From assembly GCF_003018115.1 (NCBI RefSeq), contig NZ_CP027457.1: a DNA stretch of 64,000 nucleotides; one strand, 5' to 3'. Source of the DNA: Escherichia coli. GTDB taxonomy: Bacteria > Pseudomonadota > Gammaproteobacteria > Enterobacterales > Enterobacteriaceae. The notes under the pieces were generated by a model, which was given only the letters and a program-made list of their open reading frames with translations, was not told where the DNA came from and did not search any database. Below are positions 1-47,331 of the stretch, in pieces; positions within the stretch are counted from its first letter, which is position 1; every line of letters begins with the position of its first letter. Both the position numbers and the translations under genes were made by a program.

Positions 1-134
1 TGCGTCTGTAATTCATTGAGATCGCGACGAATGGTTTCTTTACTGACCTTTAGCTGTTCAGAGAGAGCTTCCGTGGTCAGGCTGGTATGGTTCAGCAGCA
101 GGTCGACTATCGCTTGCTGGCGTGCCGCTTTCAT
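1..134 (-). CDS. fucR: DeoR-family activator of the fucose regulon, N-terminal 44 codons only (start codon complement of 132-134; gene runs off the window start)
   Basis: Reverse-strand translation gives MKAARQQAIVDLLLNHTSLTTEALSEQLKVSKETIRRDLNELQT, a DeoR-type HTH N-terminus; position after fucU fits fucPIKUR order. Confidence 0.8.
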   Translation of the reverse strand, partial: MKAARQQAIVDLLLNHTSLTTEALSEQLKVSKETIRRDLNELQT

Positions 135-191
135 ATTTTTCACCCCATCATTCGATAACCGCCCGCGTCATGCGGGCGTACCGGTATGAGA

Positions 192-614
192 TTACGGTGT
201 TACCCCTTTTTTTAAAAGAATATTCCCGTACTTCGCTCGTTCGCCTGTGATAACGATCGCAAAGGCTTTTTGCGCCCGTTCATAAAACGCAAAACGATTG
301 ATGCGGATGATGTCAGGACACGGGGCTTGTAGTGAAAGCGCATTACGGTAACGTTGTTCTACTTCAGGATCGAGAGTGTCACCTTCTACCGCCGCCATCA
401 TCACCAGCGGCGGTGCATAACTGTCCAGTTCAAATAACGGGATAATCGCCTGGAGCAAGTCGCTCACCAACAGGCCATCAGCGCGGATCACCTGCGGTCC
501 CATCGAATGGGCGGGAAAGTGAGCATCGGAAAAAATAATTTCATCTCCATGTCCCATCTCTGCCAGCACTTTCAATAGTTCGGGAGAAATTAACGGCGAA
601 ATTGTTTTCAGCAT
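192..614 (-). CDS. fucU: L-fucose mutarotase
   Basis: 140-aa ORF ([26 protein letters not shown]...), RbsD/FucU family; fuc operon synteny. Confidence 0.9.
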
Positions 615-615
615 T

Positions 616-2034: not shown

Positions 2035-2142
2035 AATCGCTCCTGCAATATAGCCGGATAACATTGCTTATCCGGCTAACCACTCTTGCTTGTTCAGGCC
2101 CGGTAGCCGGAGCGACCGGGCATCACATCAGGGAGTAATGTA

Positions 2143-3918: not shown

Positions 3919-3950
3919 TACAGATTCCTCACTTTATTCGGAAAATATGT

Positions 3951-5267
3951 TCAGTTAGTTGCCGTTTGAGAACGGAAACGGGCAAAGATAAAGATGACCG
4001 CGAAGCAGAGTGCGGGGATCAGTTCAGCAGTGGGGATGTTGCCCGCCGCGTCACTGACAAAACCCATGACCGGAGTGACAATACCGCCGCCAATGATGGT
4101 CATAACGATGAAGGACGAACCGTATTTGGTGTCCTGGCCGAGATTCTTAATGCCCAGCGAGAAGATTGTTGGGTACTGAATCGACATAAAGGCGCTGCAT
4201 AAAGTCAGGGCTATTAAGCCCACATGACCGCCAGCGAAGGCTGAGATCAGGCACAGTGCCATAGCGATTAATGCGTAGGCGGCCAGGACTTTGTGTGGTG
4301 CGAAGCGACTGATGAGCCAGGTACCGGTGAAACGACCAATAAAGAAGCACACCATGGTTCCGGTTAAATAGTTAGCGGCAAAGCCTGCAGTCATACCTGG
4401 AATTTCTTCTACAGCGTAGCGAATCAAATAGCTCCAGCAGGCCGTTTGTGCGCCAACGTAGCAGAATTGCGCTAATACTGCCCAGCGCCAGTGGCGAATA
4501 CGCGCCAGGCGAGAAAGCGATGCGGAGAACGATCCTTGTTTGGCGTCACTGTGATTATCACTCTGCAATGCCGGGAATTTCGTCAGCATGATCAGCAGGG
4601 CGACCAGTAACACGATAGCCACGATGATCATATAAGGTGTCTGTACCGATAATACCAGGCTGTGTTTATACGCACTCAATTGCTCTGGAGACATTTTATC
4701 GAGAACGTCTTGCGATTGATGTGGCACGTTAGACAAAATAAGACTTTGCCCAAAGACAACCGCGATAATTGCGCCAAATGAGTTAAATGTTTGCGCAAGA
4801 TTTAAGCGGAAGTGACCACTGCTTTCCGGCCCTAATACCGTAACAAAAGGGTTTGCGGCAGTTTCCAGACAACCTAATCCGGCTGCAATAATAAATAGGC
4901 CAACTAAAAATAAGGTGTAGTTCATTATTTCTGCGGCGGGCCAGAATAATGCAGCACCCAAGGCATATAAAAATAACCCGGTAATAATTCCTGCTTTATA
5001 ACTGAGTTTTTTCATCAATATCCCAGCAGGAATTGGGATAATGAAATAACCAAAGTAAAAGGCCGATTGGATCAGGCCAGCCTGGAAATTTGTCAGCGTA
5101 AAAGCCTGCTGGAATTGAGGTAATAAAATGTCGTTAAGGTTATTGGCTACCGCCCAAAGAAAAAACAGTGAGCACAGCAGCGCGAATGGAATAATGTAAC
5201 TTCTGCTTTTCCCTGCATCTTTATCTACCGCACGGTAACTCTGCGTTTGTATTGATGTGTTTCCCAT
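3951..5267 (-). CDS. fucP: L-fucose:H+ symporter (MFS)
   Basis: 438-aa polytopic membrane ORF; first gene of fucPIKUR. Confidence 0.9.
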   Translation of the reverse strand: MGNTSIQTQSYRAVDKDAGKSRSYIIPFALLCSLFFLWAVANNLNDILLPQFQQAFTLTNFQAGLIQSAFYFGYFIIPIPAGILMKKLSYKAGIITGLFLYALGAALFWPAAEIMNYTLFLVGLFIIAAGLGCLETAANPFVTVLGPESSGHFRLNLAQTFNSFGAIIAVVFGQSLILSNVPHQSQDVLDKMSPEQLSAYKHSLVLSVQTPYMIIVAIVLLVALLIMLTKFPALQSDNHSDAKQGSFSASLSRLARIRHWRWAVLAQFCYVGAQTACWSYLIRYAVEEIPGMTAGFAANYLTGTMVCFFIGRFTGTWLISRFAPHKVLAAYALIAMALCLISAFAGGHVGLIALTLCSAFMSIQYPTIFSLGIKNLGQDTKYGSSFIVMTIIGGGIVTPVMGFVSDAAGNIPTAELIPALCFAVIFIFARFRSQTATN

Positions 5268-5424
5268 AGCATCCTCTTAGGTTCAGAAGCTTAAGCACGT
5301 AATCGGTTATGTTTTCAAAAGTGCAAAACCAGCGAGTTCGGGCTTCATATCAGTGAATATTTGCCTGTCTGAAATGAACTCATGGATTCATTTTCAAATA
5401 AAAAACGCTCTGTAATATGACGGC

Positions 5425-34458: not shown

Positions 34459-35219
34459 GAGTTCCCCGCGCCAGCGGGGATAAACCGAAAATTGGGACGC
34501 TAACTCATGGGTCTGGGTAGAGTTCCCCGCGCCAGCGGGGATAAACCGGGAAAAACGCCTGTGGTTGGGGCTGAACCAGGGAGTTCCCCGCGCCAGCGGG
34601 GATAAACCGTCGGCGCGCTCTCTGTAGAGCGGTTGTGTGATGAGTTCCCCGCGCCAGCGGGGATAAACCGTCGTCGGGTCCGACAGGGGTCGGTTGTTCG
34701 CCGAGTTCCCCGCGCCAGCGGGGATAAACCGGCTTAATAAACGAGGAGAATACCGATGTTTTTAAGTTCCCCGCGCCAGCGGGGATAAACCGTTCTTTTA
34801 ATGGCGTCAGGCCCATTACAGAGCGAGTTCCCCGCGCCAGCGGGGATAAACCGTTTTGACGATTATTCTAAAAGTGAAAATAGCAGAGTTCCCCGCGCCA
34901 GCGGGGATAAACCGCACGCTGGAGTGACCGGGTGGCAGAGCATGACGAGTTCCCCGCGCCAGCGGGGATAAACCGCCATTTCATCATGAACGGCGGAAAT
35001 ATCGTGGGAGTTCCCCGCGCCAGCGGGGATAAACCGGTCAGTTCCCGGTTGATATATATGATGAGCATGAGTTCCCCGCGCCAGCGGGGATAAACCGCGC
35101 AATGGCGCGGCGATTGCTCTCGAGATCAAGTGTTCCCCGCGCCAGCGGGGATAAACCGGGTACAAAAGAGGCCCCATTCTGGCAGGGCTCGAGTTCCCCG
35201 CGCCAGTGGGGATAAACCA
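34459..35219 (+). CRISPR. type I-E CRISPR array, 13 repeats and 12 spacers of 32 nt, repeat GAGTTCCCCGCGCCAGCGGGGATAAACCG
   Basis: Repeats start at 34459, 34520, 34581, 34642, 34703, 34764, 34825, 34886, 34947, 35008, 35069, 35130, 35191 (61-bp period); variants AAG.. at 34764 and GTG.. at 35130; last repeat degenerate (..CCAGTGGGGATAAACCA). Confidence 0.97.
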
Positions 35220-35672
35220 CCATATAACCCGTTATCTCTTTCTCAAGTTTTTATATTAGCTGTACTTGTAATAAGCAACATATCCACGTAACACCTCATG
35301 TTCATAATAGTTCCCCATGCCAGATAAGTTCACAATTATCGATACAAAAAATTAAAGTTAATCAAAGTGTTATTTGTATAATTCTTAAGCCGTTAAGAAA
35401 TTTTAATCTATTATTTTTTTAATATTAATTAATGCCTGTTAATTTTTTCTTTAGTATAACAGTGTGTTTTTTAAGCTTGTTATTCATTGATTAAGTAATA
35501 AATCTGGAAATTTGTCTTTGTTTTGAGGCTAATGAGTGGTTTTACATAACCGCCTCTATACGCTGTTGATGAATAGTTCTTATGAATAAAGATATCCAGT
35601 TCATACTTTAAGTGAAAATTGATAAAGTGCGATTCGTATTGTCTTTTATTCTAAAGACATCGAGTGTAGTTA

Positions 35673-35811
35673 ATATTCCTTGTAAAAACAGGGATAAACC
35701 GAACTAGTTGAAGTTTTTATTATGTTCCCTGCATCAGCGGGGATAAACCGGACTTGTTATCATTTTTTAAGTTGTCGAACTTATGTTCCCCGCGTCAGCG
35801 GGGATAACCAT
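35673..35811 (+). CRISPR. degenerate CRISPR remnant (partial repeat ending 35701; repeats at 35722-35750 and 35783-35811; one 32-nt spacer)
   Basis: ATGTTCCCTGCATCAGCGGGGATAAACCG and ATGTTCCCCGCGTCAGCGGGGATAACCAT with 61-bp period. Confidence 0.8.
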
Positions 35812-35856
35812 TCAGGTATGTTCAGGCCGGGCAGTTTCCCGCCCGGTCTTCCTCAC

Positions 35857-37335
35857 TTACGCATTCGACCAGCTCTGGATCGAATCCGCATTCCCCAATT
35901 CCCCATGCATCACTTCATACGATTTTTTCAGGATCACATCAGTATGTTTGGTTAGGGCTTTGAAAATACCTTTATTCATCGCGTCGTAGCGTTTGGCATT
36001 GCTCTCAACAGGCATAAAGATATCTTTCACGCGAACCATTTTGTCGACAGCCGTTGCGTAATCCGGGTATAGCCCCAGACCTACCGCCGTATTGATCGCT
36101 GCCCCCAGACTTGCACAACCGTTAATGGCGTTACGGCGTGCAGGAAGGTTGAACACGTCGGCAAAAATTTGCATAAATAGATCGCTGTTCGAACCGCCGC
36201 CAGTAATGATCACATGCTTTGCAAAGTGATTCATTTCATTACACATATTGTCGTAATTGTTCTTCAGCGTCAGCGCCACGCTTTCCAGTATCGAACGATA
36301 TATCCATGCGTAATCCATGCTGGAATCAAAGCCGATCATAATCCCACGTTTGTAGGGTTCCCACGGGTTGGTCAGCCAGTCCAGCACCGTCATCAGACCA
36401 TTACAGCCAGGCGGCACACAAGAAGCTTTTTTGTTGAGCAAATCTTCCGGTGAAAGATCCTGTGCTTTGGCATCCTGAATTAACGACTCGCCTAACATGT
36501 CGCGTAGCCAGCTCACCGTCCACATGCCTTTACGGATACCGTACCCTTCATACAGCAATGTTTCCGGAATAGAAGACATAATCGGCCAGTACGCCACCGG
36601 ATCTTTCGGCAGTGCTTTACCGTTCATCATCAGCGCGATGTAGGTGCCAAGAGAAATCACCGCCGTTTCATCATCCAGCAATCCGGCTCCCAGAGCTTCT
36701 ACCGGTTTATCACTGGTGGTACAAACAACCGGCAGCCCTGCCGGGAAATGTGTCGCCAGCGCGGCTTGAGGTGTGATCTGTCCAAGAACAGTGCCTGGCA
36801 TTTGCACATCAAACAGCATATGACGGGGGATATTAAACTTCTCCATGACTGCGGCATCTTCACTCCATGCCCAGCTCTTATAATCCACCGGCCACTGACC
36901 AAAATAGTTGGCGATATTGTCTTTAAACTCGCCGGTTAAGCGATGCGTCAGATAACCCGAAAAAGAGGTGACATATGCCACGTCAGGATTAGTGTGTTCG
37001 TAGGGACGCGTTACGCGTGCATCCTGCCAGCTAATCAATGGCGCAGCTGGCGTGCCATCGGCTTTCAATAACGCACGGCAGCAACGGATGGATCCCAGAC
37101 CAATACCGACAATATCTTCTTTATTCCCGGCAAACTGACTCATCAAATCGTGACCGGCAAAACATAATGATGCCCATAAATCGTCGTCAGGATGTTCTGC
37201 GGTATCGGCATCTGGCGTGTGCATCGGCTGCAATAAGCCTTTACCTTCGCAAACCACATTACCTTCCAGATCGTACATCACCACTTTTGTGCTCTGACTT
37301 CCGCCATCAATCCCTATGATGTATTTTTTCGACAT
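35857..37335 (-). CDS. ygcE: FGGY-family carbohydrate kinase
   Basis: 492-aa ORF MSKKYIIGIDGGSQSTKVVMYD... Confidence 0.8.
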   Translation of the reverse strand: MSKKYIIGIDGGSQSTKVVMYDLEGNVVCEGKGLLQPMHTPDADTAEHPDDDLWASLCFAGHDLMSQFAGNKEDIVGIGLGSIRCCRALLKADGTPAAPLISWQDARVTRPYEHTNPDVAYVTSFSGYLTHRLTGEFKDNIANYFGQWPVDYKSWAWSEDAAVMEKFNIPRHMLFDVQMPGTVLGQITPQAALATHFPAGLPVVCTTSDKPVEALGAGLLDDETAVISLGTYIALMMNGKALPKDPVAYWPIMSSIPETLLYEGYGIRKGMWTVSWLRDMLGESLIQDAKAQDLSPEDLLNKKASCVPPGCNGLMTVLDWLTNPWEPYKRGIMIGFDSSMDYAWIYRSILESVALTLKNNYDNMCNEMNHFAKHVIITGGGSNSDLFMQIFADVFNLPARRNAINGCASLGAAINTAVGLGLYPDYATAVDKMVRVKDIFMPVESNAKRYDAMNKGIFKALTKHTDVILKKSYEVMHGELGNADSIQSWSNA

Positions 37336-37361
37336 GATTTTTCTCCTGTAATTTTCCTGGC

Positions 37362-38639
37362 TTACTTGCTGCTAGCTATTGCGGGGGCGCTATCAGCAGT
37401 ACGAATTTTTTGGAACAGCAAAAAGGTAAAGACAATCACCATGGCAAGCGCCGCCATTCCCATCAGCCACATATTGCGGTAGGCTTCTGCTGCGGGCAGG
37501 GTGTCTTGCCAGTGGCCGATAATTGGGTAAACGAAGACATCCGGCAGGAATCCAATCACCGAACAAATACCTACCGTGGTGCCCATAATGTAAGACGGTG
37601 TTCTCGCTTCGCCAGGGCAGGCCCAGTACAGCCCGCGTGAGGCGTAACAGGTGAATCCCAGCAGTATAATCAGGCCAATCCCCATCGCGACCGATTGCGG
37701 GTTAGAGTTCGTGACGAGCAGGGCAGTTAACGCCAGCAGGCCGAGTACGGAAAGGATTTGGATCACGCGGGTAGGGGATTTCACTTTACTGTAGGTGGTG
37801 ATAATGCCGCCAAGTGGGCCGCACAGCGCGCGGAAGATTTTGTTGATCACAATCCCCATGTAGCTCGCCGCCACCAGCGACATGCCGTACATTTCGGTCA
37901 GATAGTTGGTGGAGTAACTCAGAATGGCGTAGATGGTGAAGACACCAAAAATCACCATGCTGCAATACCAGGTGGTGCTGATGCGCAAAACGGCCAGGAT
38001 GTCGCTAAGCTGGAATGACTGTTTTTCTTCGTTATTGGCACTGCGCAGGTTGTTGTTATCGCTAACAAAAAACCAGCACAGAATCCCCAACAAGATGTAA
38101 ACCACACTATAGATGATAATGACCGTTTTCAGGCTGGTGCTGTCATCCGGTGCAAAGCGAGAAAAGACCCACATGGTAAACACCGCCAGCGACATTACAC
38201 CGACGCCGCGCAGCCCTTCCATCCAGCCCATAATTTTCCCTTGCTCGCTATGATCGCCAAGCAACGAGGCGGCTTTAATCGACACCGACCACAGCATTAA
38301 AATCGTTGTTATCGCAAAGGCGACCTGAATACAGAGCATTACCCACAGCGGTGGATACGTTGCCATTAACAGACCCAGTAATCCGGTAATGATCATCGCG
38401 GAAGTAATCATTTTGCGGTGTGAAAATTTATCGGCAATAACGCCGCTGGGGGCATAAAGAATAATAGCCGCAATACCAAAGGTACTCATTATTAAACCTA
38501 TCTCGGTATTGCTGAATCCCATAAATTTCGCCATGGGAATTTGATAAATATAACGTAAATAAGCCAGGTCGAAACTAACGCCGCCGCTAAAACTAATTAT
38601 CGCGAGGGTTATCCAACGGCGATATGAGTTGTGTTGCAT
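37362..38639 (-). CDS. yqcE: MFS transporter
   Basis: 425-aa polytopic membrane ORF. Confidence 0.75.
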   Translation of the reverse strand: MQHNSYRRWITLAIISFSGGVSFDLAYLRYIYQIPMAKFMGFSNTEIGLIMSTFGIAAIILYAPSGVIADKFSHRKMITSAMIITGLLGLLMATYPPLWVMLCIQVAFAITTILMLWSVSIKAASLLGDHSEQGKIMGWMEGLRGVGVMSLAVFTMWVFSRFAPDDSTSLKTVIIIYSVVYILLGILCWFFVSDNNNLRSANNEEKQSFQLSDILAVLRISTTWYCSMVIFGVFTIYAILSYSTNYLTEMYGMSLVAASYMGIVINKIFRALCGPLGGIITTYSKVKSPTRVIQILSVLGLLALTALLVTNSNPQSVAMGIGLIILLGFTCYASRGLYWACPGEARTPSYIMGTTVGICSVIGFLPDVFVYPIIGHWQDTLPAAEAYRNMWLMGMAALAMVIVFTFLLFQKIRTADSAPAIASSK

Positions 38640-38663
38640 ATCGTATTCCCATTTGTAATAGAC

Positions 38664-38711
38664 AAAAAAAAGAGAAAAGTAAGCCTCCCTTTCAGGTGGA
38701 TTACTTTTCTC
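38664..38711 (-). terminator. leader intrinsic terminator about 25 nt upstream of the yqcE start (11-bp stem GAGAAAAGTAA / TTACTTTTCTC, 18-nt loop, T8 on minus strand)
   Basis: Perfect inverted repeat 38672-38682 / 38701-38711 with A8 at 38664-38671 on plus strand. Confidence 0.6.
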
Positions 38712-38760
38712 AGGTCTCTAGTAATTGAAATAATAAATAACATGGAAAGCAGAGGTGTTG

Positions 38761-38833
38761 TGTGAGAGTAATCACGCTTCTGCTTTTTAAAATTATTTGA
38801 CAATACGAATATCACACTGTGATTACGATCACA
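38761..38833. promoter_or_regulatory. two CRP-type sites: TGTGAGAGTAATCACG (38761-38776) and perfect TGTGATTACGATCACA (38818-38833); TTGACA -35-like hexamer at 38797-38802
   Basis: Match to CRP consensus TGTGA-N6-TCACA read directly. Confidence 0.6.
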
Positions 38834-38886
38834 TTAGCAGTTATGTCCTTATGCTAAAAATTATCTCCAGTTACCAGAGATAATGA

Positions 38887-38933
38887 GAAAGGTAACTTCC
38901 CTCTCGCGGGGGAAGTTACCTTTCTTTTTTTTT
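38887..38933 (+). terminator. leader intrinsic terminator 24 nt upstream of the ygcW start (15-bp perfect stem GAAAGGTAACTTCCC / GGGAAGTTACCTTTC, 8-nt loop, T9)
   Basis: Read directly; sits between the putative promoter and the ygcW RBS (GGAG 38946-38949). Confidence 0.7.
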
Positions 38934-38957
38934 GCCTTACGGAAATTGGAGCTAACT

Positions 38958-39743
38958 ATGTCAATCGAATCTCTCAATGCGTTCTCAATGGATTTTTTCT
39001 CCCTGAAAGGTAAAACAGCAATTGTTACCGGCGGGAATAGCGGTTTAGGTCAGGCATTTGCAATGGCGTTGGCCAAAGCTGGCGCAAATATTTTTATTCC
39101 AAGTTTTGTCAAAGATAACGGCGAAACAAAGGAAATGATTGAAAAACAGGGTGTTGAAGTGGACTTCATGCAGGTGGATATCACCGCAGAAGGCGCACCG
39201 CAGAAGATTATCGCTGCCTGCTGTGAGCGCTTCGGTACCGTCGATATTCTGGTTAACAATGCCGGTATTTGTAAGCTGAATAAGGTGCTGGATTTCGGTC
39301 GTGCCGACTGGGATCCAATGATTGATGTGAACCTGACCGCCGCATTCGAGTTAAGCTACGAAGCGGCAAAAATTATGATCCCGCAGAAAAGCGGTAAAAT
39401 TATTAATATCTGTTCATTGTTCTCTTACTTAGGTGGACAATGGTCACCTGCTTATTCAGCCACTAAACATGCTCTTGCCGGATTCACCAAATCCTATTGC
39501 GATGAATTAGGTCAATATAATATTCAGGTGAATGGTATTGCCCCGGGATATTACGCTACCGATATCACTCTGGCGACCCGTAGTAATCCAGAAACTAACC
39601 AGCGCGTTCTTGATCATATTCCGGCAAACCGTTGGGGCGATACTCAGGATTTAATGGGCGCAGCCGTATTCCTCGCAAGTCCGGCATCGAATTATGTCAA
39701 CGGGCATTTATTAGTGGTTGATGGCGGTTATTTAGTGCGCTAA
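38958..39743 (+). CDS. ygcW: short-chain dehydrogenase/reductase (SDR)
   Basis: ORF from MSIESLNAFSMDFFSLKGKTAIVTGGNSGLG (Rossmann TGGxSGxG); ORF-track N-terminal extension rejected. Confidence 0.8.
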   Translation: MSIESLNAFSMDFFSLKGKTAIVTGGNSGLGQAFAMALAKAGANIFIPSFVKDNGETKEMIEKQGVEVDFMQVDITAEGAPQKIIAACCERFGTVDILVNNAGICKLNKVLDFGRADWDPMIDVNLTAAFELSYEAAKIMIPQKSGKIINICSLFSYLGGQWSPAYSATKHALAGFTKSYCDELGQYNIQVNGIAPGYYATDITLATRSNPETNQRVLDHIPANRWGDTQDLMGAAVFLASPASNYVNGHLLVVDGGYLVR

Positions 39744-39812
39744 CCCATAACGGTGGTTTCTGTTTTCTCTTATTAATGATTATTCCATTTTTATTATCAG
39801 GAAGGAATTACT

Positions 39813-41267
39813 ATGTCTTTATCTCGCGCAGCGATTGTCGACCAGCTAAAGGAAATTGTTGGTGCAGATCGCGTAATTACCGATGAAACAGTATTAAAGA
39901 AGAACAGTATTGACCGTTTTCGTAAATTTCCGGATATTCATGGCATTTATACTTTGCCGATTCCGGCAGCGGTCGTAAAACTCGGTTCCACAGAGCAAGT
40001 ATCCCGTGTGCTGAATTTTATGAATGCGCACAAAATTAACGGTGTGCCGCGTACCGGTGCTTCCGCCACCGAAGGTGGGCTGGAAACTGTTGTAGAAAAC
40101 TCGGTGGTGCTCGACGGTTCCGCCATGAATCAAATCATTAATATTGATATTGAGAATATGCAGGCGACGGCGCAATGTGGCGTTCCGCTGGAGGTGCTGG
40201 AAAACGCGTTGCGTGAAAAAGGTTACACCACGGGGCATTCTCCGCAGTCAAAGCCGCTGGCGCAGATGGGCGGCCTGGTAGCAACCCGCAGTATCGGGCA
40301 GTTCTCCACACTCTACGGCGCAATCGAAGATATGGTCGTTGGTCTGGAAGCAGTATTGGCTGATGGCACCGTGACACGTATTAAAAACGTGCCACGCCGC
40401 GCGGCTGGCCCGGACATTCGTCACATCATCATCGGCAACGAAGGTGCATTGTGCTATATCACTGAAGTAACAGTGAAAATCTTTAAATTCACCCCGGAAA
40501 ACAACCTCTTCTACGGCTATATCCTGGAAGACATGAAAACCGGCTTCAACATCCTGCGTGAAATCATGGTGGAAGGGTATCGTCCGTCGATCGCTCGTTT
40601 GTATGACGTTGAAGATGGCACCCAACACTTCACCCATTTTGCCGACGGAAAATGCGTGCTGATCTTTATGGCTGAAGGTAACCCTCGCATTGCGAAGGCG
40701 ACGGGCGAAGGGATTGCGGAAATCGTTGCCCGCTACCCGCAATGCCAGCGCGTGGACAGCAAGCTGATCGAAACCTGGTTTAACAACCTGAACTGGGGAC
40801 CGGATAAAGTGGCTGCCGAACGTGTGCAGATCCTCAAAACCGGCAACATGGGCTTTACCACCGAAGTGTCCGGCTGCTGGAGCTGCATCCACGAAATCTA
40901 CGAAAGTGTTATTAACCGTATTCGTACCGAGTTCCCGCACGCCGACGACATCACTATGCTGGGCGGTCACTCCTCTCATAGCTATCAGAACGGCACCAAC
41001 ATGTACTTCGTCTACGACTACAACGTTGTCGACTGTAAGCCGGAAGAGGAAATCGACAAGTACCACAATCCGCTCAACAAAATCATTTGCGAAGAAACCA
41101 TTCGCCTCGGTGGTTCGATGGTGCACCACCACGGTATCGGTAAACATCGCGTTCACTGGAGCAAACTGGAACACGGCAGCGCGTGGGCGTTGCTGGAAGG
41201 GCTGAAAAAGCAATTCGATCCTAACGGCATTATGAACGCGGGTACTATCTATCCGATTGAAAAATAA
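39813..41267 (+). CDS. ygcU: FAD-linked oxidase (glycolate oxidase / alkyl-DHAP synthase-like)
   Basis: 484-aa ORF. Confidence 0.75.
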   Translation: MSLSRAAIVDQLKEIVGADRVITDETVLKKNSIDRFRKFPDIHGIYTLPIPAAVVKLGSTEQVSRVLNFMNAHKINGVPRTGASATEGGLETVVENSVVLDGSAMNQIINIDIENMQATAQCGVPLEVLENALREKGYTTGHSPQSKPLAQMGGLVATRSIGQFSTLYGAIEDMVVGLEAVLADGTVTRIKNVPRRAAGPDIRHIIIGNEGALCYITEVTVKIFKFTPENNLFYGYILEDMKTGFNILREIMVEGYRPSIARLYDVEDGTQHFTHFADGKCVLIFMAEGNPRIAKATGEGIAEIVARYPQCQRVDSKLIETWFNNLNWGPDKVAAERVQILKTGNMGFTTEVSGCWSCIHEIYESVINRIRTEFPHADDITMLGGHSSHSYQNGTNMYFVYDYNVVDCKPEEEIDKYHNPLNKIICEETIRLGGSMVHHHGIGKHRVHWSKLEHGSAWALLEGLKKQFDPNGIMNAGTIYPIEK

Positions 41268-41360
41268 TGTGTCAGGCAGCGTCCCGTGATGACGGGGCGT
41301 TGCCTTTTCGGCTTCTCAGGTGAGAAGCCGTTCTTATTACCGGACAATGAAGGGGTAAAG

Positions 41361-42698
41361 ATGAACACTTCACCGGTGCGAATGGATGATTTACCGCTTA
41401 ACCGTTTTCACTGTCGAATTGCTGCGCTCACTTTCGGCGCACACCTGACCGACGGTTATGTTCTCGGCGTCATTGGTTACGCCATTATTCAACTTACGCC
41501 CGCCATGCAACTGACGCCGTTTATGGCGGGAATGATCGGCGGCTCGGCGCTCCTTGGTTTGTTTCTTGGCAGCCTGGTTCTTGGGTGGATCTCCGACCAT
41601 ATTGGTCGGCAAAAAATCTTCACCTTCAGCTTTTTGCTGATTACGCTCGCTTCGTTCTTGCAATTTTTTGCCACCACGCCAGAGCATCTTATTGGGCTGC
41701 GCATTTTGATCGGCATTGGGCTGGGAGGCGATTACTCAGTCGGTCACACCTTGCTGGCTGAATTTTCCCCGCGCCGCCATCGCGGTGTTTTGCTGGGCGC
41801 ATTCAGCGTGGTGTGGACCGTAGGCTATGTGCTGGCAAGTATTGCCGGACATCACTTTATTTCCGAAAACCCGGAGGCCTGGCGCTGGCTACTGGCATCG
41901 GCAGCTCTGCCCGCGTTGTTGATTACGTTATTACGCTGGGGAACGCCAGAATCGCCACGCTGGCTACTGCGCCAGGGGCGTTTTGCAGAAGCTCACGCTA
42001 TCGTGCATCGCTATTTTGGTCCCCATGTTTTACTGGGCGATGAAGTGGTAACGGCGACCCATAAACACATCAAAACCTTGTTCTCTTCGCGTTACTGGCG
42101 GCGCACGGCGTTTAACAGCGTCTTCTTTGTCTGCCTCGTAATCCCATGGTTTGTGATTTATACCTGGCTGCCAACTATCGCCCAGACTATTGGTCTGGAA
42201 GATGCGCTGACTGCCAGCCTGATGCTTAATGCGTTGTTAATTGTGGGCGCGCTGCTGGGATTAGTTCTGACGCACCTGCTGGCACATCGCAAATTTTTGC
42301 TGGGAAGTTTTTTGCTGCTGGCGGCAACGCTGGTAGTAATGGCCTGTTTGCCTTCCGGCAGTTCATTAACGCTGCTGCTTTTTGTTCTCTTCAGCACCAC
42401 CATTTCGGCAGTCAGTAATCTGGTGGGCATTTTGCCTGCGGAAAGTTTTCCTACTGACATTCGCTCGCTGGGCGTCGGTTTTGCCACCGCCATGAGTCGA
42501 CTTGGCGCGGCGGTAAGTACTGGCCTGCTGCCGTGGGTGCTGGCGCAGTGGGGAATGCAAGTCACCTTATTGCTCCTGGCGACAGTGTTGTTGGTTGGTT
42601 TTGTTGTGACCTGGCTATGGGCACCAGAAACCAAAGCCCTCCCGCTGGTGGCGGCGGGAAATGTAGGAGGTGCGAATGAACATTCTGTTAGCGTTTAA
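41361..42698 (+). CDS. ygcS: MFS sugar-type transporter
   Basis: Membrane ORF from MNTSPVRMDDLPLNRF... Confidence 0.75.
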   Translation: MNTSPVRMDDLPLNRFHCRIAALTFGAHLTDGYVLGVIGYAIIQLTPAMQLTPFMAGMIGGSALLGLFLGSLVLGWISDHIGRQKIFTFSFLLITLASFLQFFATTPEHLIGLRILIGIGLGGDYSVGHTLLAEFSPRRHRGVLLGAFSVVWTVGYVLASIAGHHFISENPEAWRWLLASAALPALLITLLRWGTPESPRWLLRQGRFAEAHAIVHRYFGPHVLLGDEVVTATHKHIKTLFSSRYWRRTAFNSVFFVCLVIPWFVIYTWLPTIAQTIGLEDALTASLMLNALLIVGALLGLVLTHLLAHRKFLLGSFLLLAATLVVMACLPSGSSLTLLLFVLFSTTISAVSNLVGILPAESFPTDIRSLGVGFATAMSRLGAAVSTGLLPWVLAQWGMQVTLLLLATVLLVGFVVTWLWAPETKALPLVAAGNVGGANEHSVSV

Positions 42699-43455
42699 AG
42701 CCGAACCGGATGCCGGAATGCTGGCGGAAAAAGAGTGGCGGGCGGCGGCTCAGGGTAATAGCGGACCGGATATTTCGCTACTGCGAAGTTTACTCGGTGC
42801 TGATGAACAGGCTGCCGCCGCGCTGCTGTTGGCGCAGAGAAAAAACGGTACGCCGATGTCTTTAACCGCGTTGAGCATGGGGGATGAACGGGCGTTGCAC
42901 TGGCTGCGCTATCTCATGGCTCTTGGGTTTGAGGAAGCTGTATTGCTGGAGACGGCGGCAGATCTGCGCTTTGCGCCGGAATTTGTCGCTCGCCATATTG
43001 CCGAATGGCAGCGTCAGAATCCGCTGGATCTGATAATTACCGGCTGCCAAAGCAGCGAAGGGCAGAATGGGCAAACGCCATTTTTGCTGGCGGAAATGCT
43101 GGGCTGGCCCTGCTTCACCCAGGTGGAGCGTTTCACTCTCGACGCGCTGTTTATCACCCTCGAACAGCGTACTGAACATGGGTTGCGTTGTTGCCGGGTT
43201 CGCTTGCCTGCGGTGATTGCCGTGCGTCAGTGCGGTGAAGTGGCCTTGCCAGTACCGGGAATGCGCCAGCGAATGGCTGCGGGGAAAGCAGAAATTATCC
43301 GTAAAACTGTTGCTGCCGAAATGCCAGCGATGCAGTGTCTGCAACTGGCAAGAGCAGAGCAACGACGCGGAGCGACGCTGATTGATGGGCAAACGGTAGC
43401 AGAAAAAGCTCAAAAGCTATGGCAGGACTATTTACGCCAAAGGATGCAGCCATGA
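42676..43455 (+). CDS. ygcR: electron-transfer-flavoprotein beta-subunit-like protein
   Basis: ORF MNILLAFKAEPDAGML..., FixA/EtfB-like. Confidence 0.75.
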   Translation: MNILLAFKAEPDAGMLAEKEWRAAAQGNSGPDISLLRSLLGADEQAAAALLLAQRKNGTPMSLTALSMGDERALHWLRYLMALGFEEAVLLETAADLRFAPEFVARHIAEWQRQNPLDLIITGCQSSEGQNGQTPFLLAEMLGWPCFTQVERFTLDALFITLEQRTEHGLRCCRVRLPAVIAVRQCGEVALPVPGMRQRMAAGKAEIIRKTVAAEMPAMQCLQLARAEQRRGATLIDGQTVAEKAQKLWQDYLRQRMQP

Positions 43456-44312
43456 ATATCGCAATTGTGACAATAAATCAGGAGAATGCCGCAATAGCAA
43501 GCTGGCTGGCGGCGCAGGATTTCAGCGGTTGTACCCTGGCGCACTGGCAGATTGAACCTCAGCCTGTAGTGGCGGAACAGGTGCTGGATGCGTTGGTGGA
43601 ACAGTGGCAGCGAACGCCTGCGGACGTTGTTCTCTTTCCGCCGGGAACGTTTGGCGATGAACTGTCGACCCGGCTGGCCTGGCGTTTACATGGTGCAAGC
43701 ATCTGCCAGGTGACTTCGTTAGATATTCCAACCGTAAGCGTGCGCAAATCCCACTGGGGAAATGCGCTAACGGCGACGCTGCAAACAGAAAAACGCCCGC
43801 TATGCCTTTCCCAGGCGCGTCAGGCGGGAGCAGCGAAAAACGCCACGTTGCCCTCTGGAATGCAACAACTGAACATTGTCCCGGGTGCGCTTCCCGACTG
43901 GCTGGTTAGCACAGAGGATCTGAAAAATGTTACTCGCGACCCATTAGCTGAGGCCAGACGGGTGCTGGTGGTGGGGCAGGGCGGAGAGGCAGATAACCAG
44001 GAAATCGCTATGCTGGCAGAAAAGCTGGGAGCCGAAGTGGGCTACAGTCGGGCGCGAGTGATGAACGGTGGCGTTGATGCTGAAAAAGTGATTGGTATTT
44101 CCGGACATCTGCTGGCACCTGAGGTGTGTATTGTTGTTGGCGCTTCTGGCGCAGCAGCGTTAATGGCGGGCGTACGCAATAGCAAGTTTGTGGTGGCGAT
44201 TAATCATGACGCCAGCGCTGCGGTATTTTCACAGGTAGATGTTGGCGTGGTTGATGACTGGAAAGTGGTGCTGGAGGCACTGGTGACAAACATTCACGCA
44301 GATTGCCAATAA
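43452..44312 (+). CDS. ygcQ: electron-transfer-flavoprotein alpha-subunit-like protein
   Basis: ORF MNIAIVTINQENAAIASWLAAQ..., FixB/EtfA-like. Confidence 0.75.
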   Translation: MNIAIVTINQENAAIASWLAAQDFSGCTLAHWQIEPQPVVAEQVLDALVEQWQRTPADVVLFPPGTFGDELSTRLAWRLHGASICQVTSLDIPTVSVRKSHWGNALTATLQTEKRPLCLSQARQAGAAKNATLPSGMQQLNIVPGALPDWLVSTEDLKNVTRDPLAEARRVLVVGQGGEADNQEIAMLAEKLGAEVGYSRARVMNGGVDAEKVIGISGHLLAPEVCIVVGASGAAALMAGVRNSKFVVAINHDASAAVFSQVDVGVVDDWKVVLEALVTNIHADCQ

Positions 44313-44356
44313 CGTGTTGCCGGATGATCCTGCCTACGGTTCTGGCCTGGGGACTT

Positions 44357-44394
44357 GTAGGCCTGATAAGACGCGTCAAGCGTCGCATCAGGCG
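44357..44394. repeat. REP element (TGTAGGCCTGATAAGACGCGTCAAGCGTCGCATCAGGCG) with flanking REP-like halves
   Basis: REP palindrome consensus. Confidence 0.6.
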
Positions 44395-44459
44395 CTGAAT
44401 GTCGGATGTGGCGTGCGGCCTACAAATCAAACCAAATTCAATTGGTTACGATTATCCCG

Positions 44460-45035
44460 TCAAAGTAATTTTTTCGCTAACGTCCAGACCCCGGTATTCG
44501 TGGTGGAAAGCGCCACGACACCCGCGTTAATCGCATTACGCGCATCTTCTTCATCGCACACCAGCCCACCGGCAATCAGCGGTTGGCGGATTTTCTCTGT
44601 CACCCAGCCCAGCACTTTGGGCATACAGCCTGGCAGGATCTCAATACAATCCGGATTCGATTGCGCAACTTGCTTATCAATGTTGTGAAACGAAATTGAA
44701 TCAACAATAAACAGGCGATGAATACAGAAAAAACCTTCCGCTCTTGCCGCTTTCAACATTGAGGCTTTGGTACTGATAATGCCGTCCGCCTCGGTCACCA
44801 GTTTCAAAAACTGAATCACGACTTCTTTATTTGACGCGCCTTCCAGCAAATCAACATGAATAAAAGCATATTTCCCGGCGTTCTTAATCTTTTTAACGAT
44901 ATTACTGATGGTGCAGATATTGCCGTACAACACGGAAATAAACTGGCATTCAGAGTCGATTGCCAGTTGCAGGCTGGCATTATCTTTAACGGCAGCAATC
45001 ACCGGATTCTGGCGGAGCAGGTGTAAGAGGGGCAT
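44460..45035 (-). CDS. ygcP: GlpP-family (glycerol-3-phosphate-responsive-type) antiterminator-like protein
   Basis: 191-aa ORF MPLLHLLRQNPVIAAVKDNASLQLAI... Confidence 0.75.
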   Translation of the reverse strand: MPLLHLLRQNPVIAAVKDNASLQLAIDSECQFISVLYGNICTISNIVKKIKNAGKYAFIHVDLLEGASNKEVVIQFLKLVTEADGIISTKASMLKAARAEGFFCIHRLFIVDSISFHNIDKQVAQSNPDCIEILPGCMPKVLGWVTEKIRQPLIAGGLVCDEEDARNAINAGVVALSTTNTGVWTLAKKLL

Positions 45036-45051
45036 AAATTATCCTTATTAT

Positions 45052-45312
45052 TTATCCAAAGCGGTAGGTGATGCCGAATCCGGAAGGCGGATAGCGCCAC
45101 TGTTGTAGTGTGGATTCGTCGCACAGCAAACGGCAGGTGCCACACTCCAGGCAGCCGTGATAATCAACGCGTAAGTCACCTTCCGGTGTGAGCGAAAAAA
45201 GACCTGCCGGACAGGCGTTAATCAACCGTTGTACCATCTGACGCTCAACGGAGTCAGCCGGAACAATGTGCGGCGCATCAGCAACGCGCCAGAGATTATG
45301 GGCTACAGACAT
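45052..45312 (-). CDS. ygcO: ferredoxin-like protein (FixX-like)
   Basis: ORF MSVAHNLWRVADAPHIV... with CxxC cysteines. Confidence 0.7.
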   Translation of the reverse strand: MSVAHNLWRVADAPHIVPADSVERQMVQRLINACPAGLFSLTPEGDLRVDYHGCLECGTCRLLCDESTLQQWRYPPSGFGITYRFG

Positions 45313-46574
45313 CGCAGACTCCTGATAACATCGCCCGCCAGATGCCACAGGCCATGACGACGTAAATGACGCCAGAATAACTGGCGCAGCGGTGGAACAG
45401 GTTTATCACCCTGATCCCATAAATCGCGGGAAATATCCTGCATTAACGCAGGCCACGCCCGATACCAGCCAGGGCGTTGCAAAAGCGCCGGAACATGCTG
45501 ATAACGTTGTAGAACATCCCATAGCAGGCTGCGCTCTACGTTGTGATGATAAAGCGCAAACAGATTTTGCGGCTCGCGGTGCTGGCAGGCGCTTATCAGC
45601 GTTTGTGCCGCCGCCTGCGCGCCAGTCAGCGCCATATCCATGCCGCGCACGGAAATTCCGGTATTGACGCAACTGCGCAACGCATCGCCCACCAGCAGCC
45701 AGCCGTTACCGGCGTATTGCACCGGCATACTGTGCAAGCCACCTTCTGGCACCAGATGCGCACCATACTCCAGTGATTCCGTGTTTTTGATAAGCGGGCG
45801 CACTGCCGGATGCGCTTTAAAGCGAGTCAGCAGCTCGCTTGCCGGAACACGACTTTGCGTAAGGGAAGAGAGCGGGCAAACAATCCCTAACGAGAGCGTT
45901 TGTTGATTAGTATAAAGAAATGCGCCGCCGGGTAAGTCATCACAGATCCTGCCGCTGAACAGCAACGCTGCGCCTTCGTTTTTCTCCAGATGAAAACGTT
46001 CTTCAATAGCGGATGTTTCCAGCGACAGCACTTCTTTGATCCCCAACGCCATCGCTTCGCCAGCAGGACGAGTCACTAATCCGTGACGTTCAGCCAGGAC
46101 GCTGTTGGCACCTTCTGCCAGCACCACATAACGGGCGCGGAGAATATCGTCACCACAAATGACACCACACACCCTGCCGTTTTCTTCATACAGTGCATCC
46201 ACCGTCGCTCCGGGGATGCATTCGACACCTTCTTTTTCGGCTTCGGCAACCAGCCACGGATCGAACCGTGCACGTAATACACTCCAGGATTCACCGCCGG
46301 GCTGTAAGCTGGAAAACGTCGTTACGCCATCGGGCGTTAACAGGGAAAGGCTTTCGTGAGTGATGCGTCGTTCAAGAGGCGCGGTCAGATGAAACTGAGG
46401 GAGGAGTTCCGCGAGTGCATGGGTATATAACCGCCCGCCGGAAAGATTTTTGCTGCCGGGGATTTCAGCGCGTTCCAGTAACAAAACGGATAAACCCGCT
46501 CGCGCGCAGCGTAACGCGCAAGCGGTGCCTGCAATACCGGCACCAATAATAATAATGTCGCAGTCGTCTTCCAT
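45303..46574 (-). CDS. ygcN: FAD-dependent oxidoreductase (FixC-like)
   Basis: ORF MEDDCDIIIIGAGIAGTACALR... (dinucleotide-binding GxGxxG). Confidence 0.75.
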   Translation of the reverse strand: MEDDCDIIIIGAGIAGTACALRCARAGLSVLLLERAEIPGSKNLSGGRLYTHALAELLPQFHLTAPLERRITHESLSLLTPDGVTTFSSLQPGGESWSVLRARFDPWLVAEAEKEGVECIPGATVDALYEENGRVCGVICGDDILRARYVVLAEGANSVLAERHGLVTRPAGEAMALGIKEVLSLETSAIEERFHLEKNEGAALLFSGRICDDLPGGAFLYTNQQTLSLGIVCPLSSLTQSRVPASELLTRFKAHPAVRPLIKNTESLEYGAHLVPEGGLHSMPVQYAGNGWLLVGDALRSCVNTGISVRGMDMALTGAQAAAQTLISACQHREPQNLFALYHHNVERSLLWDVLQRYQHVPALLQRPGWYRAWPALMQDISRDLWDQGDKPVPPLRQLFWRHLRRHGLWHLAGDVIRSLRCL

Positions 46575-46651
46575 GTCATGCCCCAGATATCCAGAACACA
46601 ACACCCTAACATAGCGTTACTTAAGGGAAATTGACCGCCGACACACTCTTA

Positions 46652-47017
46652 TCATTCGCCGCGATAGATACAACCTGCGGTACAGGTTTCTTTTACCATC
46701 ACCGCACTTAACAGCGGCACAACGGGTTTAACCTGATCCCAAATCCATTTTGCTAAAACCTCGCTGGTTGGGTTTTCCAGACCTGGAATATCATTGAGAT
46801 AATGGTGATCGAGGCGCTCGTAGGTTGGTTTAAACGCCGCTTTTAGTTCAGCGAAATCGATAATCCAGCCCGTATGCGGATCGACTTCCCCGGTAATTTC
46901 CAGTCGCACCATAAAGGAATGCCCGTGCAGGCGACCACATTTATGCCCTTCCGGGACGTGTGGTAAGCGGTGAGCGGCTTCGAAGGTGAAATCTTTAAAT
47001 AACGTGGTGGACATCAT
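46652..47017 (-). CDS. queD: 6-carboxy-5,6,7,8-tetrahydropterin synthase
   Basis: [38 protein letters not shown]...; ORF-track N-terminal extension rejected. Confidence 0.88.
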
Positions 47018-47331
47018 AATTTCTCTACAGGACGATAAAACCGCCGTAGAGTACCGGAAAGGCTGTTTTTTCGCATTATCTAAAACGACTTTGTTGCGCA
47101 AAATCGCTGATTTATCTTAATGATTGGCTAAATTCATTTGTTTTTCATTGGGTTGGTTAATCTATTTTGTTGTTAAAGACTATTGCTAAAACAGGTTAGT
47201 CGATTTGGTTATTAGTTATCGCTATCCCGTCTTTAATCCACACCATTTGCCCCGTTAACCTTACCTTCTCTTCTGTTTTTGGGCGCTGACAGGGCGCAGA
47301 AACAGCTTTGCTTACTGGAACATAACGACGC

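Follow-up and report, generated by a model that had tools for sequence, protein, structure and literature searches.

Gene content of the ygc locus

The ygc locus of Escherichia coli lies at positions 35857-46574 of the 64-kb stretch of DNA analyzed here (the window) and comprises ten open reading frames (ORFs), all free of internal stops at the coordinates and strands given in Table 1. We assigned the encoded proteins to families by Pfam and NCBIfam profile searches and took their nearest structures from PDB sequence matches. Together with the ORFs and the RefSeq gene names, these searches upheld the gene inventory and family calls of an earlier annotation made from the DNA letters alone (the sequence-only reading), including its GlpP-like regulator, here YgcP. 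That reading passed over four features: the likeness of YgcU to alkyl-dihydroxyacetone phosphate (alkyl-DHAP) synthase (AGPS), two leader RNAs, the apparent class II geometry of the CRP sites, and links to quaternary amines beyond Enterobacterales. RefSeq gives identical gene names in the best E. coli match and in K-12, where all products are termed 'putative', and the window proteins are 91-100% identical to those of K-12 (100% for YgcP). Literature searches by gene name and by pathway terms (AGPS with FGGY, BCCT or ETF; trimethylhomoserine, glyceryl and MttB) returned no assigned function or pathway, as the sequence-only reading had held, and a 2026 PNAS paper names YgcU merely as an FAD-binding oxidoreductase. 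The ygc cluster is confirmed as an observation, with its function unproven.

None of the ten proteins reached an NCBIfam equivalog cutoff. YgcW came nearest, scoring 349.8 bits against the KduD model NF005390 (cutoff 369) and 276.5 against TIGR01832 (cutoff 338.9). YgcE stayed under all of them, including XylB (143 vs 380), LsrK (141 vs 528) and GlpK (101 vs 590), and its top PDB sequence match is LsrK (5ya0, 3e-29). YqcE gave weak NCBIfam matches only, to the D-galactonate and PgtP subfamilies, and every subfamily match of YgcS was under cutoff. The parts of a FixABCX-type system are complete (EtfB, EtfA, FixC-like and FixX-like) and matched the NCBIfam FixA, FixB, FixC and FixX models, all below cutoff: the matches of YgcR and YgcQ fell far short, and YgcN reached 382 bits with PRK10015 and 364 bits with FixC. 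YgcP scored 210.6 bits against PF04309 (cutoff 27) and matched Listeria GlpP in the PDB (3kts, 1e-27).

Table 1. Genes, CRP sites and RNA elements of the ygc region, in window positions.
Feature	Position	Strand	Description
ygcE	35857-37335	-	Pfam FGGY_N/FGGY_C; kinase of the FGGY family; follows yqcE in the yqcE-ygcE operon
yqcE	37362-38639	-	Pfam MFS_1; major facilitator superfamily (MFS) transporter; first gene past the minus-strand leader
ygcW	38958-39743	+	Pfam adh_short; short-chain dehydrogenase/reductase (SDR), KduD / gluconate-5-dehydrogenase type
ygcU	39813-41267	+	Pfam FAD_binding_4 and FAD-oxidase_C; vanillyl-alcohol oxidase (VAO)-family flavoenzyme, nearest to alkyl-DHAP synthase
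ygcS	41361-42698	+	Pfam Sugar_tr; MFS transporter, sugar-porter / aromatic-acid:H+ type
ygcR	42676-43455	+	Pfam ETF; EtfB-like, divergent, accessory
ygcQ	43452-44312	+	Pfam ETF_alpha; EtfA-like, divergent, accessory
ygcP	44460-45035	-	Pfam PF04309 G3P_antiterm, 1.4e-62; predicted GlpP-family RNA-binding antiterminator
ygcO	45052-45312	-	FixX-like ferredoxin; NCBIfam NF011993, 84 bits (cutoff 166); accessory
ygcN	45303-46574	-	FixC / ETF-QO-like flavoprotein; Pfam ETFQO_UQ-bd; accessory
CRP site, ygcW side	38818-38833		Perfect site TGTGATTACGATCACA; center 41.5 nt upstream of the putative ygcW start (~38867, +)
CRP site, yqcE side	38761-38776		Predicted second, near-consensus site TGTGAGAGTAATCACG; center 41.5 nt upstream of the putative yqcE start (~38727, -)
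yqcE leader RNA	38658-38736	-	Covariance model 74.7 bits, E 9e-14
yqcE leader parts		-	5' arm AAUUACU 38720-38726; AG-rich loop; 3' arm AGUAAU; terminator 38672-38711; U8 38664-38671
ygcW leader RNA	38859-38940	+	Covariance model 73.2 bits, E 2e-13
ygcW leader parts		+	5' arm AGUUACC 38869-38875; AG-rich loop AGAGAUAAUGAGAAA; 3' arm GGUAACU 38891-38897
ygcW leader terminator	38885-38926	+	19-bp hairpin, then U9 38927-38935; top terminator-like site of the region
ygcU-ygcS hairpins	41274-41305 and 41309-41330	+	Two strong hairpins between ygcU and ygcS: 14-bp GC-rich stem, then UUUUC; 9-bp stem

Divergent promoters and CRP sites

The divergently oriented yqcE and ygcW are separated by 318 nt, within which we placed the two transcription starts from plausible -10 hexamers. 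The CRP site on the ygcW side had been predicted earlier by PhyloScan; it is bound in vivo in enterotoxigenic E. coli H10407 (PMC4287617) and in vitro with a Kd of ~1.7 nM (PMC12871828). The yqcE-ygcE operon has been listed as Crp-activated (PMC8085971), and CRP binding on the yqcE side is a prediction from sequence. The spacing in Table 1 suggests class II CRP geometry at both promoters. The regulatory region was found in 5066 of the 5426 complete E. coli genomes; separately, 1184 records match the 291-nt regulatory region at 99% identity or more.

Two leader RNAs and a GlpP-family regulator

Each of the two transcripts would begin with a conserved leader element of ~75 nt in which an AG-rich stretch (AGAG-N4-5-GAGAAA) is placed between two complementary arms, and both leaders contain an intrinsic terminator located before the start codon of ygcW or yqcE. 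The ygcW terminator folds at -30.6 kcal/mol (z -7.8) and its antiterminator hairpin alone at -6.7; the yqcE terminator, a hairpin of at least 11 bp followed by U8, folds at -19.2 kcal/mol (z -4.25) and the corresponding antiterminator hairpin at -1.4. We tested covariation on a 43-sequence leader alignment, using slid helices as controls. The 7-bp antiterminator helix (columns 17-23 with 43-49) was 96% paired, with compensatory changes at four of its seven pairs, compared with 15-56% pairing in the slid controls, and the lower stem of the terminator was 99.1% paired, with compensatory changes at four of eight pairs. Because columns 43-44 of the tested stems, and columns 43-49 in the full E. 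coli terminator, are common to the antiterminator helix and the 5' arm of the terminator, the two are mutually exclusive. An upstream in-frame ATG at 38883, which would add 25 codons (38883-38957) to ygcW, was rejected as its start, since this extension crosses the leader terminator and both RefSeq and the orthologs start at 38958.

A homolog scan with one genome per species yielded at least 553 loci, of which 80 were kept, and the E. coli proteins were mapped onto 84 loci in all. The same element was found in Enterobacterales, Bacilli, Clostridia, Negativicutes and one actinomycete, typically 7-12 nt past the -10 box, and it stands before yqcE in 43 loci. It is present in 53 of the 54 loci that have YgcP and absent from 22 of the 30 that lack it; clusters without YgcP in Desulfobacterota and SAR324 have sigma-54 or GntR-type regulators and no element. 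A covariance-model search of the window returned exactly two copies, the ygc leaders, and Rfam held no family matching the leader in the window or in the Firmicute loci. We rejected an interpretation of the hairpins as dispersed repeats: BLAST places the region solely at this locus in E. coli, and the covariance model counts just two copies in the whole 64-kb window.

In Bacillus subtilis, GlpP binds glycerol-3-phosphate and overrides the leader terminators of glpD, glpFK and glpTQ (PMC9604022), an established mechanism with which the architecture of the ygc leaders agrees. The leaders might instead work without YgcP, as small-molecule riboswitches, constitutive attenuators or RNA-stability elements, with YgcP regulating other targets or none. 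Such a role would suit an element that is conserved in sequence besides structure, that occurs in eight loci with no YgcP inside the examined stretch, and whose covariance model found no match in the canonical glp loci (five GlpP-family loci, two of them informative). Several of these eight loci, however, are contigs that end near the element, and the leader otherwise comes and goes with YgcP. Moreover, typical aptamers are more complex than a 7-bp helix with a ~15-nt loop, and a hairpin of -1.4 to -6.7 kcal/mol cannot outcompete the terminator unaided. We consider regulation independent of YgcP very improbable, and YgcP-dependent antitermination at both leaders very likely on these comparative grounds.

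Two glycerol-associated GlpP loci showed a related motif. At L086 (1310-1385, glpK-glpF) and L085 (2125-2185, with an Fe-ADH neighbor), the leader terminator is immediately preceded, and overlapped, by an AGAG-N4-(A)AGAG stretch; at L086 this stretch occupies the loop of a small hairpin, resembling the AG-rich loop of the ygc leaders. With these two examples, the AGAG stretch may be a common recognition motif of the GlpP family. Extra copies of the ygc-type leader also occur inside the operon, right before YgcU, in some Clostridia and one gammaproteobacterium (L063 9852-9912, L065 9827-9911, L068 8714-8797 and L060 1744-1804), so that YgcU expression is gated apart from that of YgcW and YgcE.

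A three-enzyme core and an accessory electron-transfer layer

The recurring unit among the 84 loci is YgcW, YgcE and YgcU, whose genes are adjacent and intact in Enterobacterales, Bacilli, Clostridia, Negativicutes, Desulfobacterota and SAR324; they are apparently adjacent in Actinomycetes too, where L072, L078 and L081 were poorly resolved by ORF calling. This unit spans at least five phyla, usually with a YgcP homolog (50-61% identity) alongside, and identity to the E. coli proteins across phyla is 65-80% for YgcW, 65-75% for YgcU and 43-58% for YgcE. Halophilic Bacilli have a minimal set, YgcP and a YgcW-YgcE-YgcU-transporter operon, and neither an aldolase nor an isomerase is encoded in the minimal operons.

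The ETF and Fix-like genes are distributed differently across these loci. ETF is absent from Bacilli and from Pantoea/Erwinia-type clusters, both ETF and YgcN/O are absent from Pantoea, Erwinia and some Serratia, and YgcN/O were not detected beyond Enterobacterales. EtfB and EtfA, at about 30% identity, are present in Clostridia, Negativicutes, Desulfobacterota and most Enterobacterales. Identity of YgcR and YgcQ to the Etf proteins of other phyla is just 26-39%, and inside Enterobacteriaceae it is 44-73%. Between Klebsiella and E. coli, YgcR, YgcQ and YgcN share 73, 58 and 78% identity, compared with 97, 94 and 96% for YgcW, YgcU and YgcP and 93% for QueD. The EtfB-EtfA pairs outside Enterobacterales are followed by a second FAD oxidase that carries an EHG motif and has LctD as its best solved relative (7qh2_C, 4e-22). 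This LctD-like enzyme occurs in 18 non-enterobacterial loci, and no gene for it is found in the E. coli window.

Because of this patchy occurrence and much faster divergence, we regard the ETF/Fix chain as an add-on and not, as the sequence-only reading had it, as the defining feature of the cluster; a division into a YgcW/YgcE/YgcU core and a lineage-specific accessory layer is, judging by the comparative data, highly probable. The same reading described the setting as conserved core context and not an island. Within Escherichia and close Enterobacteriaceae this is borne out: a type I-E CRISPR array (repeat GAGTTCCCCGCGCCAGCGGGGATAAACCG, period 61, two blocks, 34581-35160) lies between queE and ygcE, and queD-cysJI forms the opposite flank. 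On the scale of phyla it holds only in part, since 65-80% identity of YgcU and YgcW and the patchy occurrence of the cluster in Enterobacterales imply horizontal spread.

Fast divergence of the ETF/Fix genes, with ygcO 95.0% identical to K-12 in nucleotides and 90.8% in amino acids, would also be expected if the cluster were a cryptic, decaying remnant that is functionless in E. coli at present. Strong leader terminators that silence the cluster by default, and literature searches that gave no phenotype or inducing condition, are compatible with this idea. Yet the ten ORFs are intact, and 5060 of the 5426 complete genomes contain at least 80% of the region in a BLAST survey, close to the count for the regulatory region. 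In addition, ygcW is 95.0% identical to K-12 in nucleotides and 99.2% in amino acids (differences of 5% and 0.8%), indicating strong purifying selection, and the Klebsiella identities of YgcW, YgcU and YgcP are at or above that of the housekeeping protein QueD. A remnant is, on this evidence, extremely improbable.

Some loci depart from the general arrangement. In four Erwinia/Pantoea-type loci (L034, L039, L048 and L049, ~1-5400), YgcS is encoded in a separate operon together with an aldehyde dehydrogenase, an aldo-keto reductase and a homolog of the formaldehyde-activating enzyme Fae; this operon is adjoined by genes for YgcP and a LysR regulator, and ETF/Fix genes are absent. A YgcU 99% identical to that of E. 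coli in a metagenome-assembled genome labeled Planctomycetota (L005), and an Enterobacter-like ygc cluster in a record labeled Chryseobacterium sp. (L029), look like contamination or mis-binning in public records.

Transporters and neighboring genes outside Enterobacterales

Beside the core, non-Enterobacterales loci encode BCCT transporters (14 loci) or OpuA/OpuC-type ABC transporters with OpuAC binding proteins (7-10 loci). At least six loci have MttB-family methyltransferases next to the core, and in Desulfobacula a full set comprising MTTB, a corrinoid protein and a pterin methyltransferase lies directly upstream of YgcW. The ygc-type leader stands directly before BCCT genes in L003 and L064 and before the MTTB gene in L074, so these genes belong to the same regulon; in L065 and L068 it precedes probable BCCT genes, called by size alone. 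Because of these transporters and methyltransferases, the sequence evidence points, outside Enterobacterales, to a solute with a quaternary ammonium and an acidic group, and thus to a quaternary-ammonium X in the glyceryl-X substrate proposed below. Phosphocholine, a phosphorylated quaternary amine, is the substrate of one characterized MttB protein (PMC12155760), and the deacylated head group of diacylglyceryl carboxyhydroxymethylcholine (DGCC) is reported from marine animals (PMC10362313). In or near the core operon, a Dethiosulfatibacter locus encodes a SurE-type phosphatase (L064, 14670-15437) and an Alkalihalobacillus locus an APH / choline-kinase-like protein (L002, 11836-12732). These neighbors hint at a released moiety that is a phosphate ester or is turned into one.

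Candidate substrates were judged by three requirements: a free primary and a free secondary hydroxyl, dependence on all three enzymes, and betaine-type transport. Plain glycerol or glycerol-3-phosphate, carnitine, choline, dihydroxypropanesulfonate (DHPS) and sn-glycerol-1-phosphate were rejected, each failing at least one of them. Dehydrogenases of the KduD / gluconate-5-dehydrogenase type yield R-CO-CH2OH from terminal diols.

YgcU resembles alkyl-dihydroxyacetone phosphate synthase

The best PDB sequence matches of YgcU are AGPS structures (4bby, 4e-40; 2uuu, 4e-38), ahead of glycolate oxidase (8e-26) and LctD (7qh2_C, 5e-22), and its score against the GlcD model TIGR00387 (1.3e-41, 143 bits) is far under the cutoff of 568. 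YgcU residues R262, Y398 and H438-H440 align with R419, Y578 and the HHH loop of guinea-pig AGPS, and the AGPS mutant chains 4bc7 and 4bca depart from wild type precisely at the aligned Arg and Tyr. All of these YgcU residues are invariant in 15 homologs from several phyla. The LctD and GlcD types and the second FAD oxidase of the anaerobes have EHG where YgcU and AGPS have HHH, a loop whose role in AGPS was reportedly addressed by Nenci and co-workers in 2012. In Dictyostelium AGPS, R352 and Y508, the counterparts of this Arg and Tyr, are required (review, PMC3509576). According to the same review, catalysis starts with removal of the C1 proton from acyl-DHAP by the Tyr; the resulting carbanion attacks flavin N5, the carboxylate departs and another nucleophile takes its place, leaving the redox state unchanged overall (PMC3509576).

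These similarities suggest that YgcU works like AGPS. We do not class it as one, because the N-terminal domain of AGPS is missing and the gene context is catabolic and polar. The earlier assignment of YgcU to the FAD-linked oxidases is correct for the family but misses that its nearest relative is AGPS and not a generic oxidase. As to the AGPS reaction itself, acyl-DHAP plus fatty alcohol to alkyl-DHAP, the polar-solute transporters and the catabolic regulator argue against a role in lipid biosynthesis.

A different course, built on the sequence-only reading and similar to glp or erythritol catabolism, would have YgcE phosphorylate an imported sugar or polyol, YgcU oxidize the polyol phosphate as an ordinary flavin dehydrogenase, YgcW contribute an auxiliary NAD-linked step and electrons pass from YgcU through YgcRQ and YgcNO to quinone. 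The family assignments are compatible with it, as are the position of YgcU directly before EtfB-EtfA in Enterobacterales, Clostridia, Negativicutes and Desulfobacterota, the ETF-QO ubiquinone-binding domain of YgcN, and a GlpP-type regulator that implies a glycerol-3-phosphate-like effector. The two other Fix-like sets of E. coli serve flavin dehydrogenases, and ETF is lacking mainly in aerobic Bacilli, in which O2 could be the electron acceptor of an oxidase. However, facultative Pantoea, Erwinia and some Serratia also lack ETF, YgcR/Q/N/O evolve far faster than the core, and in anaerobes the ETF pair has its own LctD-like dehydrogenase downstream as a natural partner. YgcU carries the AGPS set of Arg, Tyr and HHH and not the EHG of ETF-paired dehydrogenases, no aldolase or isomerase gene follows in the minimal operons, and betaine-type transporters and MttB are unsuited to a plain sugar or polyol. 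We judge polyol oxidation unlikely, if still a serious competitor.

A route for sugar acids or 2-hydroxy acids would use YqcE as an anion:cation-symporter-like importer, YgcW as a KduD-like dehydrogenase, YgcE as a keto-acid kinase and YgcU with ETF as an LctBCD-like dehydrogenase. The near-cutoff KduD score of YgcW, the D-galactonate transporter as the best (weak) subfamily match of YqcE, and the GlcD and LctD matches of YgcU would agree with such a route. Against this, AGPS matches YgcU better than GlcD or LctD does, YgcU lacks the EHG motif, and the E. coli cluster, unlike those of the anaerobes, has no LctD-like partner; a GlpP-type regulator, BCCT/OpuA transporters and MttB would also be unexpected for sugar acids. 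We consider this route very improbable.

A proposed pathway for glyceryl conjugates

Our preferred interpretation is that the ygc genes form a catabolic system under catabolite control and substrate induction, made of a core and an accessory layer, in which a glyceryl compound is degraded by AGPS-type cleavage under antitermination control; we put the probability of this model as a whole at roughly 0.45. Divergent class II CRP-dependent promoters would drive yqcE-ygcE and ygcW-ygcU(-ygcS-ygcR-ygcQ), with a strong intrinsic terminator as the default fold of each leader. YgcP loaded with a phosphorylated pathway intermediate would then bind the 5' hairpin (7-bp helix, AG-rich loop), and, because the 3' arm of this hairpin is part of the terminator stem, binding would block termination.

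The substrate would be a glyceryl-X, that is, a terminal 1,2-diol in which glycerol is substituted on the other primary carbon, entering via YqcE and/or YgcS. YgcW would oxidize the secondary alcohol to a ketone, and YgcE would phosphorylate the primary alcohol to give an X-substituted dihydroxyacetone phosphate. YgcU, by AGPS-type chemistry, would enolize this intermediate through its Tyr, form a covalent flavin-N5 adduct and expel X, leaving a C3 phosphate at the level of dihydroxyacetone phosphate (DHAP). Because the minimal operons lack an aldolase or isomerase, the three enzymes must reach a central metabolite by themselves, and this is the simplest scheme in which each of them takes part and the product joins central metabolism. 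The three steps would amount to ether-lipid synthesis in reverse (alkylglycerol kinase, alkyl-DHAP reductase of the SDR type, AGPS). Outside Enterobacterales, the substrates could be deacylated choline- or betaine-lipid head groups, for example glycerophosphocholine or betaine glyceryl ethers such as glyceryl-trimethylhomoserine; such unusual chemistry would make more sense for ether-linked conjugates than for glycerophosphocholine, a substrate of ordinary phosphodiesterases. For E. coli we speculate that one MFS carrier imports the conjugate and the other exports X. During anaerobic or facultative growth, YgcRQ and YgcNO would probably link a flavin to the quinone pool; this flavin would be that of YgcU if YgcU catalyzes a net oxidation. 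A redox-neutral YgcU would fit both AGPS and the ETF-less clusters of Bacilli and Pantoea, and a net-oxidative one would fit the linkage of YgcU with EtfB-EtfA in anaerobes and YgcNO in E. coli.

Several observations weigh against this pathway. YgcU, at 484 aa, lacks the N-terminal domain of AGPS (584-658 aa), and the alignments start at AGPS residue ~138 (2uuu) or ~215 (4bby). The third residue defined by mutagenesis in the Dictyostelium enzyme, R447, could not be aligned to YgcU, and an AlphaFold2 model of YgcU built from a 15-sequence alignment had a mean predicted local distance difference test (pLDDT) score of 63, with active-site segments below 50, too poor for inspection of the active site. 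In most anaerobes and facultative organisms YgcU is followed by EtfB-EtfA, often in overlapping genes, which suits a net redox role at least equally well. The carriers of E. coli are MFS and not BCCT proteins, so that X may differ from that of other phyla, and if X were phosphocholine, with glycerophosphocholine as substrate, the pathway would be redundant with ordinary glycerophosphodiesterases. On the regulatory side, RNA binding by YgcP and its phosphorylated effector are inferred from family membership and co-occurrence, and the absence of leader-model matches from the canonical glp loci counts in the same direction. For these reasons the glyceryl-X chemistry with AGPS-type cleavage is offered as a tentative proposal, somewhat short of an even chance. 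There is a substantial chance, though well below even, that ygcW-ygcE-ygcU represents an unrecognized and widespread route for the C3 unit of glyceryl conjugates, above all deacylated head groups of choline and betaine lipids with their quaternary amine. In such a route the conjugate would become a substituted DHAP, an AGPS-like flavoenzyme would break its otherwise stable C-O (ether or phosphodiester) or C-N bond, and control would lie with a new GlpP-family leader switch that is at work in E. coli too.

Further features of the region

The two hairpins between ygcU and ygcS fold at -47.6 kcal/mol (z -5.6) and were also picked up by the terminator scan; they could act as an attenuator into ygcS-ygcR-ygcQ or stabilize the ygcWU mRNA. 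In the convergent ygcQ-ygcP gap, the single sub-threshold Rfam match, to naRNA4/CssrE (44360-44433, minus strand; 34 bits vs a gathering score of 59.5) is probably a repetitive extragenic palindromic (REP)-type element. The top match to the 12.2 kb at 35000-47200 among the 5426 complete E. coli genomes is merely 98.3% identical. Nucleotide identity to K-12 is uneven, at ~95% for ygcW, ygcE and ygcO and 98-99.7% for the remaining genes, a pattern that suggests a mosaic or recombinant history.

Relation to known systems and significance

The regulatory part of the ygc cluster resembles the B. subtilis glp/GlpP system in its PF04309 protein, in the intrinsic terminator of the 5' untranslated region that is to be overridden, and in having a kinase, a flavoenzyme and transporters as targets. 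Catabolite control acts at the same promoters in both, through CcpA in B. subtilis glp and CRP in ygc. Unlike in B. subtilis glp, genes other than glpK, glpD and glpF are the targets in ygc, a conserved sequence and a 7-bp helix of its own mark the leader, and the system is proteobacterial and CRP-controlled. The enzymatic part parallels the eukaryotic ether-lipid steps, which likewise comprise a kinase for 1-substituted glycerols, an SDR for the C2 alcohol/ketone and a VAO flavoenzyme, and YgcU shares the AGPS FAD domain and the catalytic Arg, Tyr and HHH. The ygc cluster differs from these steps in its catabolic context, its transporters for hydrophilic solutes, the proposed direction of cleavage, an FGGY kinase and the lack of lipid-handling genes.

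Like E. coli fixABCX/caiTABCDE and ydiQRST, the cluster combines paralogous EtfB/EtfA, FixC and FixX with a catabolic operon that contains a flavoenzyme; the cai system handles a quaternary amine, carnitine, and uses a BCCT antiporter. In contrast to FixABCX, however, YgcRQ and YgcNO are under every Fix equivalog cutoff and missing from most homologous clusters, and their partner is not an acyl-CoA dehydrogenase. The ygc-type clusters of anaerobes, with EtfB-EtfA followed by an LctD-type oxidase, resemble LctBCD of Acetobacterium woodii, whereas the E. coli cluster has no LctD-like gene and its YgcU is AGPS-like. Finally, the methyltransferase sets beside YgcW-YgcU in Desulfobacula and other anaerobes recall MttB-superfamily systems such as MthBCA/MthK, which handles choline via phosphocholine (PMC12155760); these methyltransferase genes are absent from E. 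coli. What sets the ygc cluster apart is the combination of a cross-phylum enzyme triad that includes an AGPS-like flavoenzyme with an undescribed leader switch of the GlpP family.

If the proposed model is correct, it would provide a function for ten E. coli 'y-ome' genes found in ~93% of complete genomes. With YgcP and its leaders, a GlpP-type protein-RNA antitermination switch would be defined for the first time in a proteobacterium, and the compact, portable leader would be useful as a genetic tool. The chemistry of AGPS, with its covalent flavin-N5 intermediate and DHAP derivatives, would reach beyond eukaryotic lipid synthesis into bacterial catabolism. With its core wired to betaine-type transporters and MttB in anaerobes, gut and marine bacteria, the pathway may also matter for trimethylamine-related metabolism and for the turnover of lipid head groups that contain choline or betaine.

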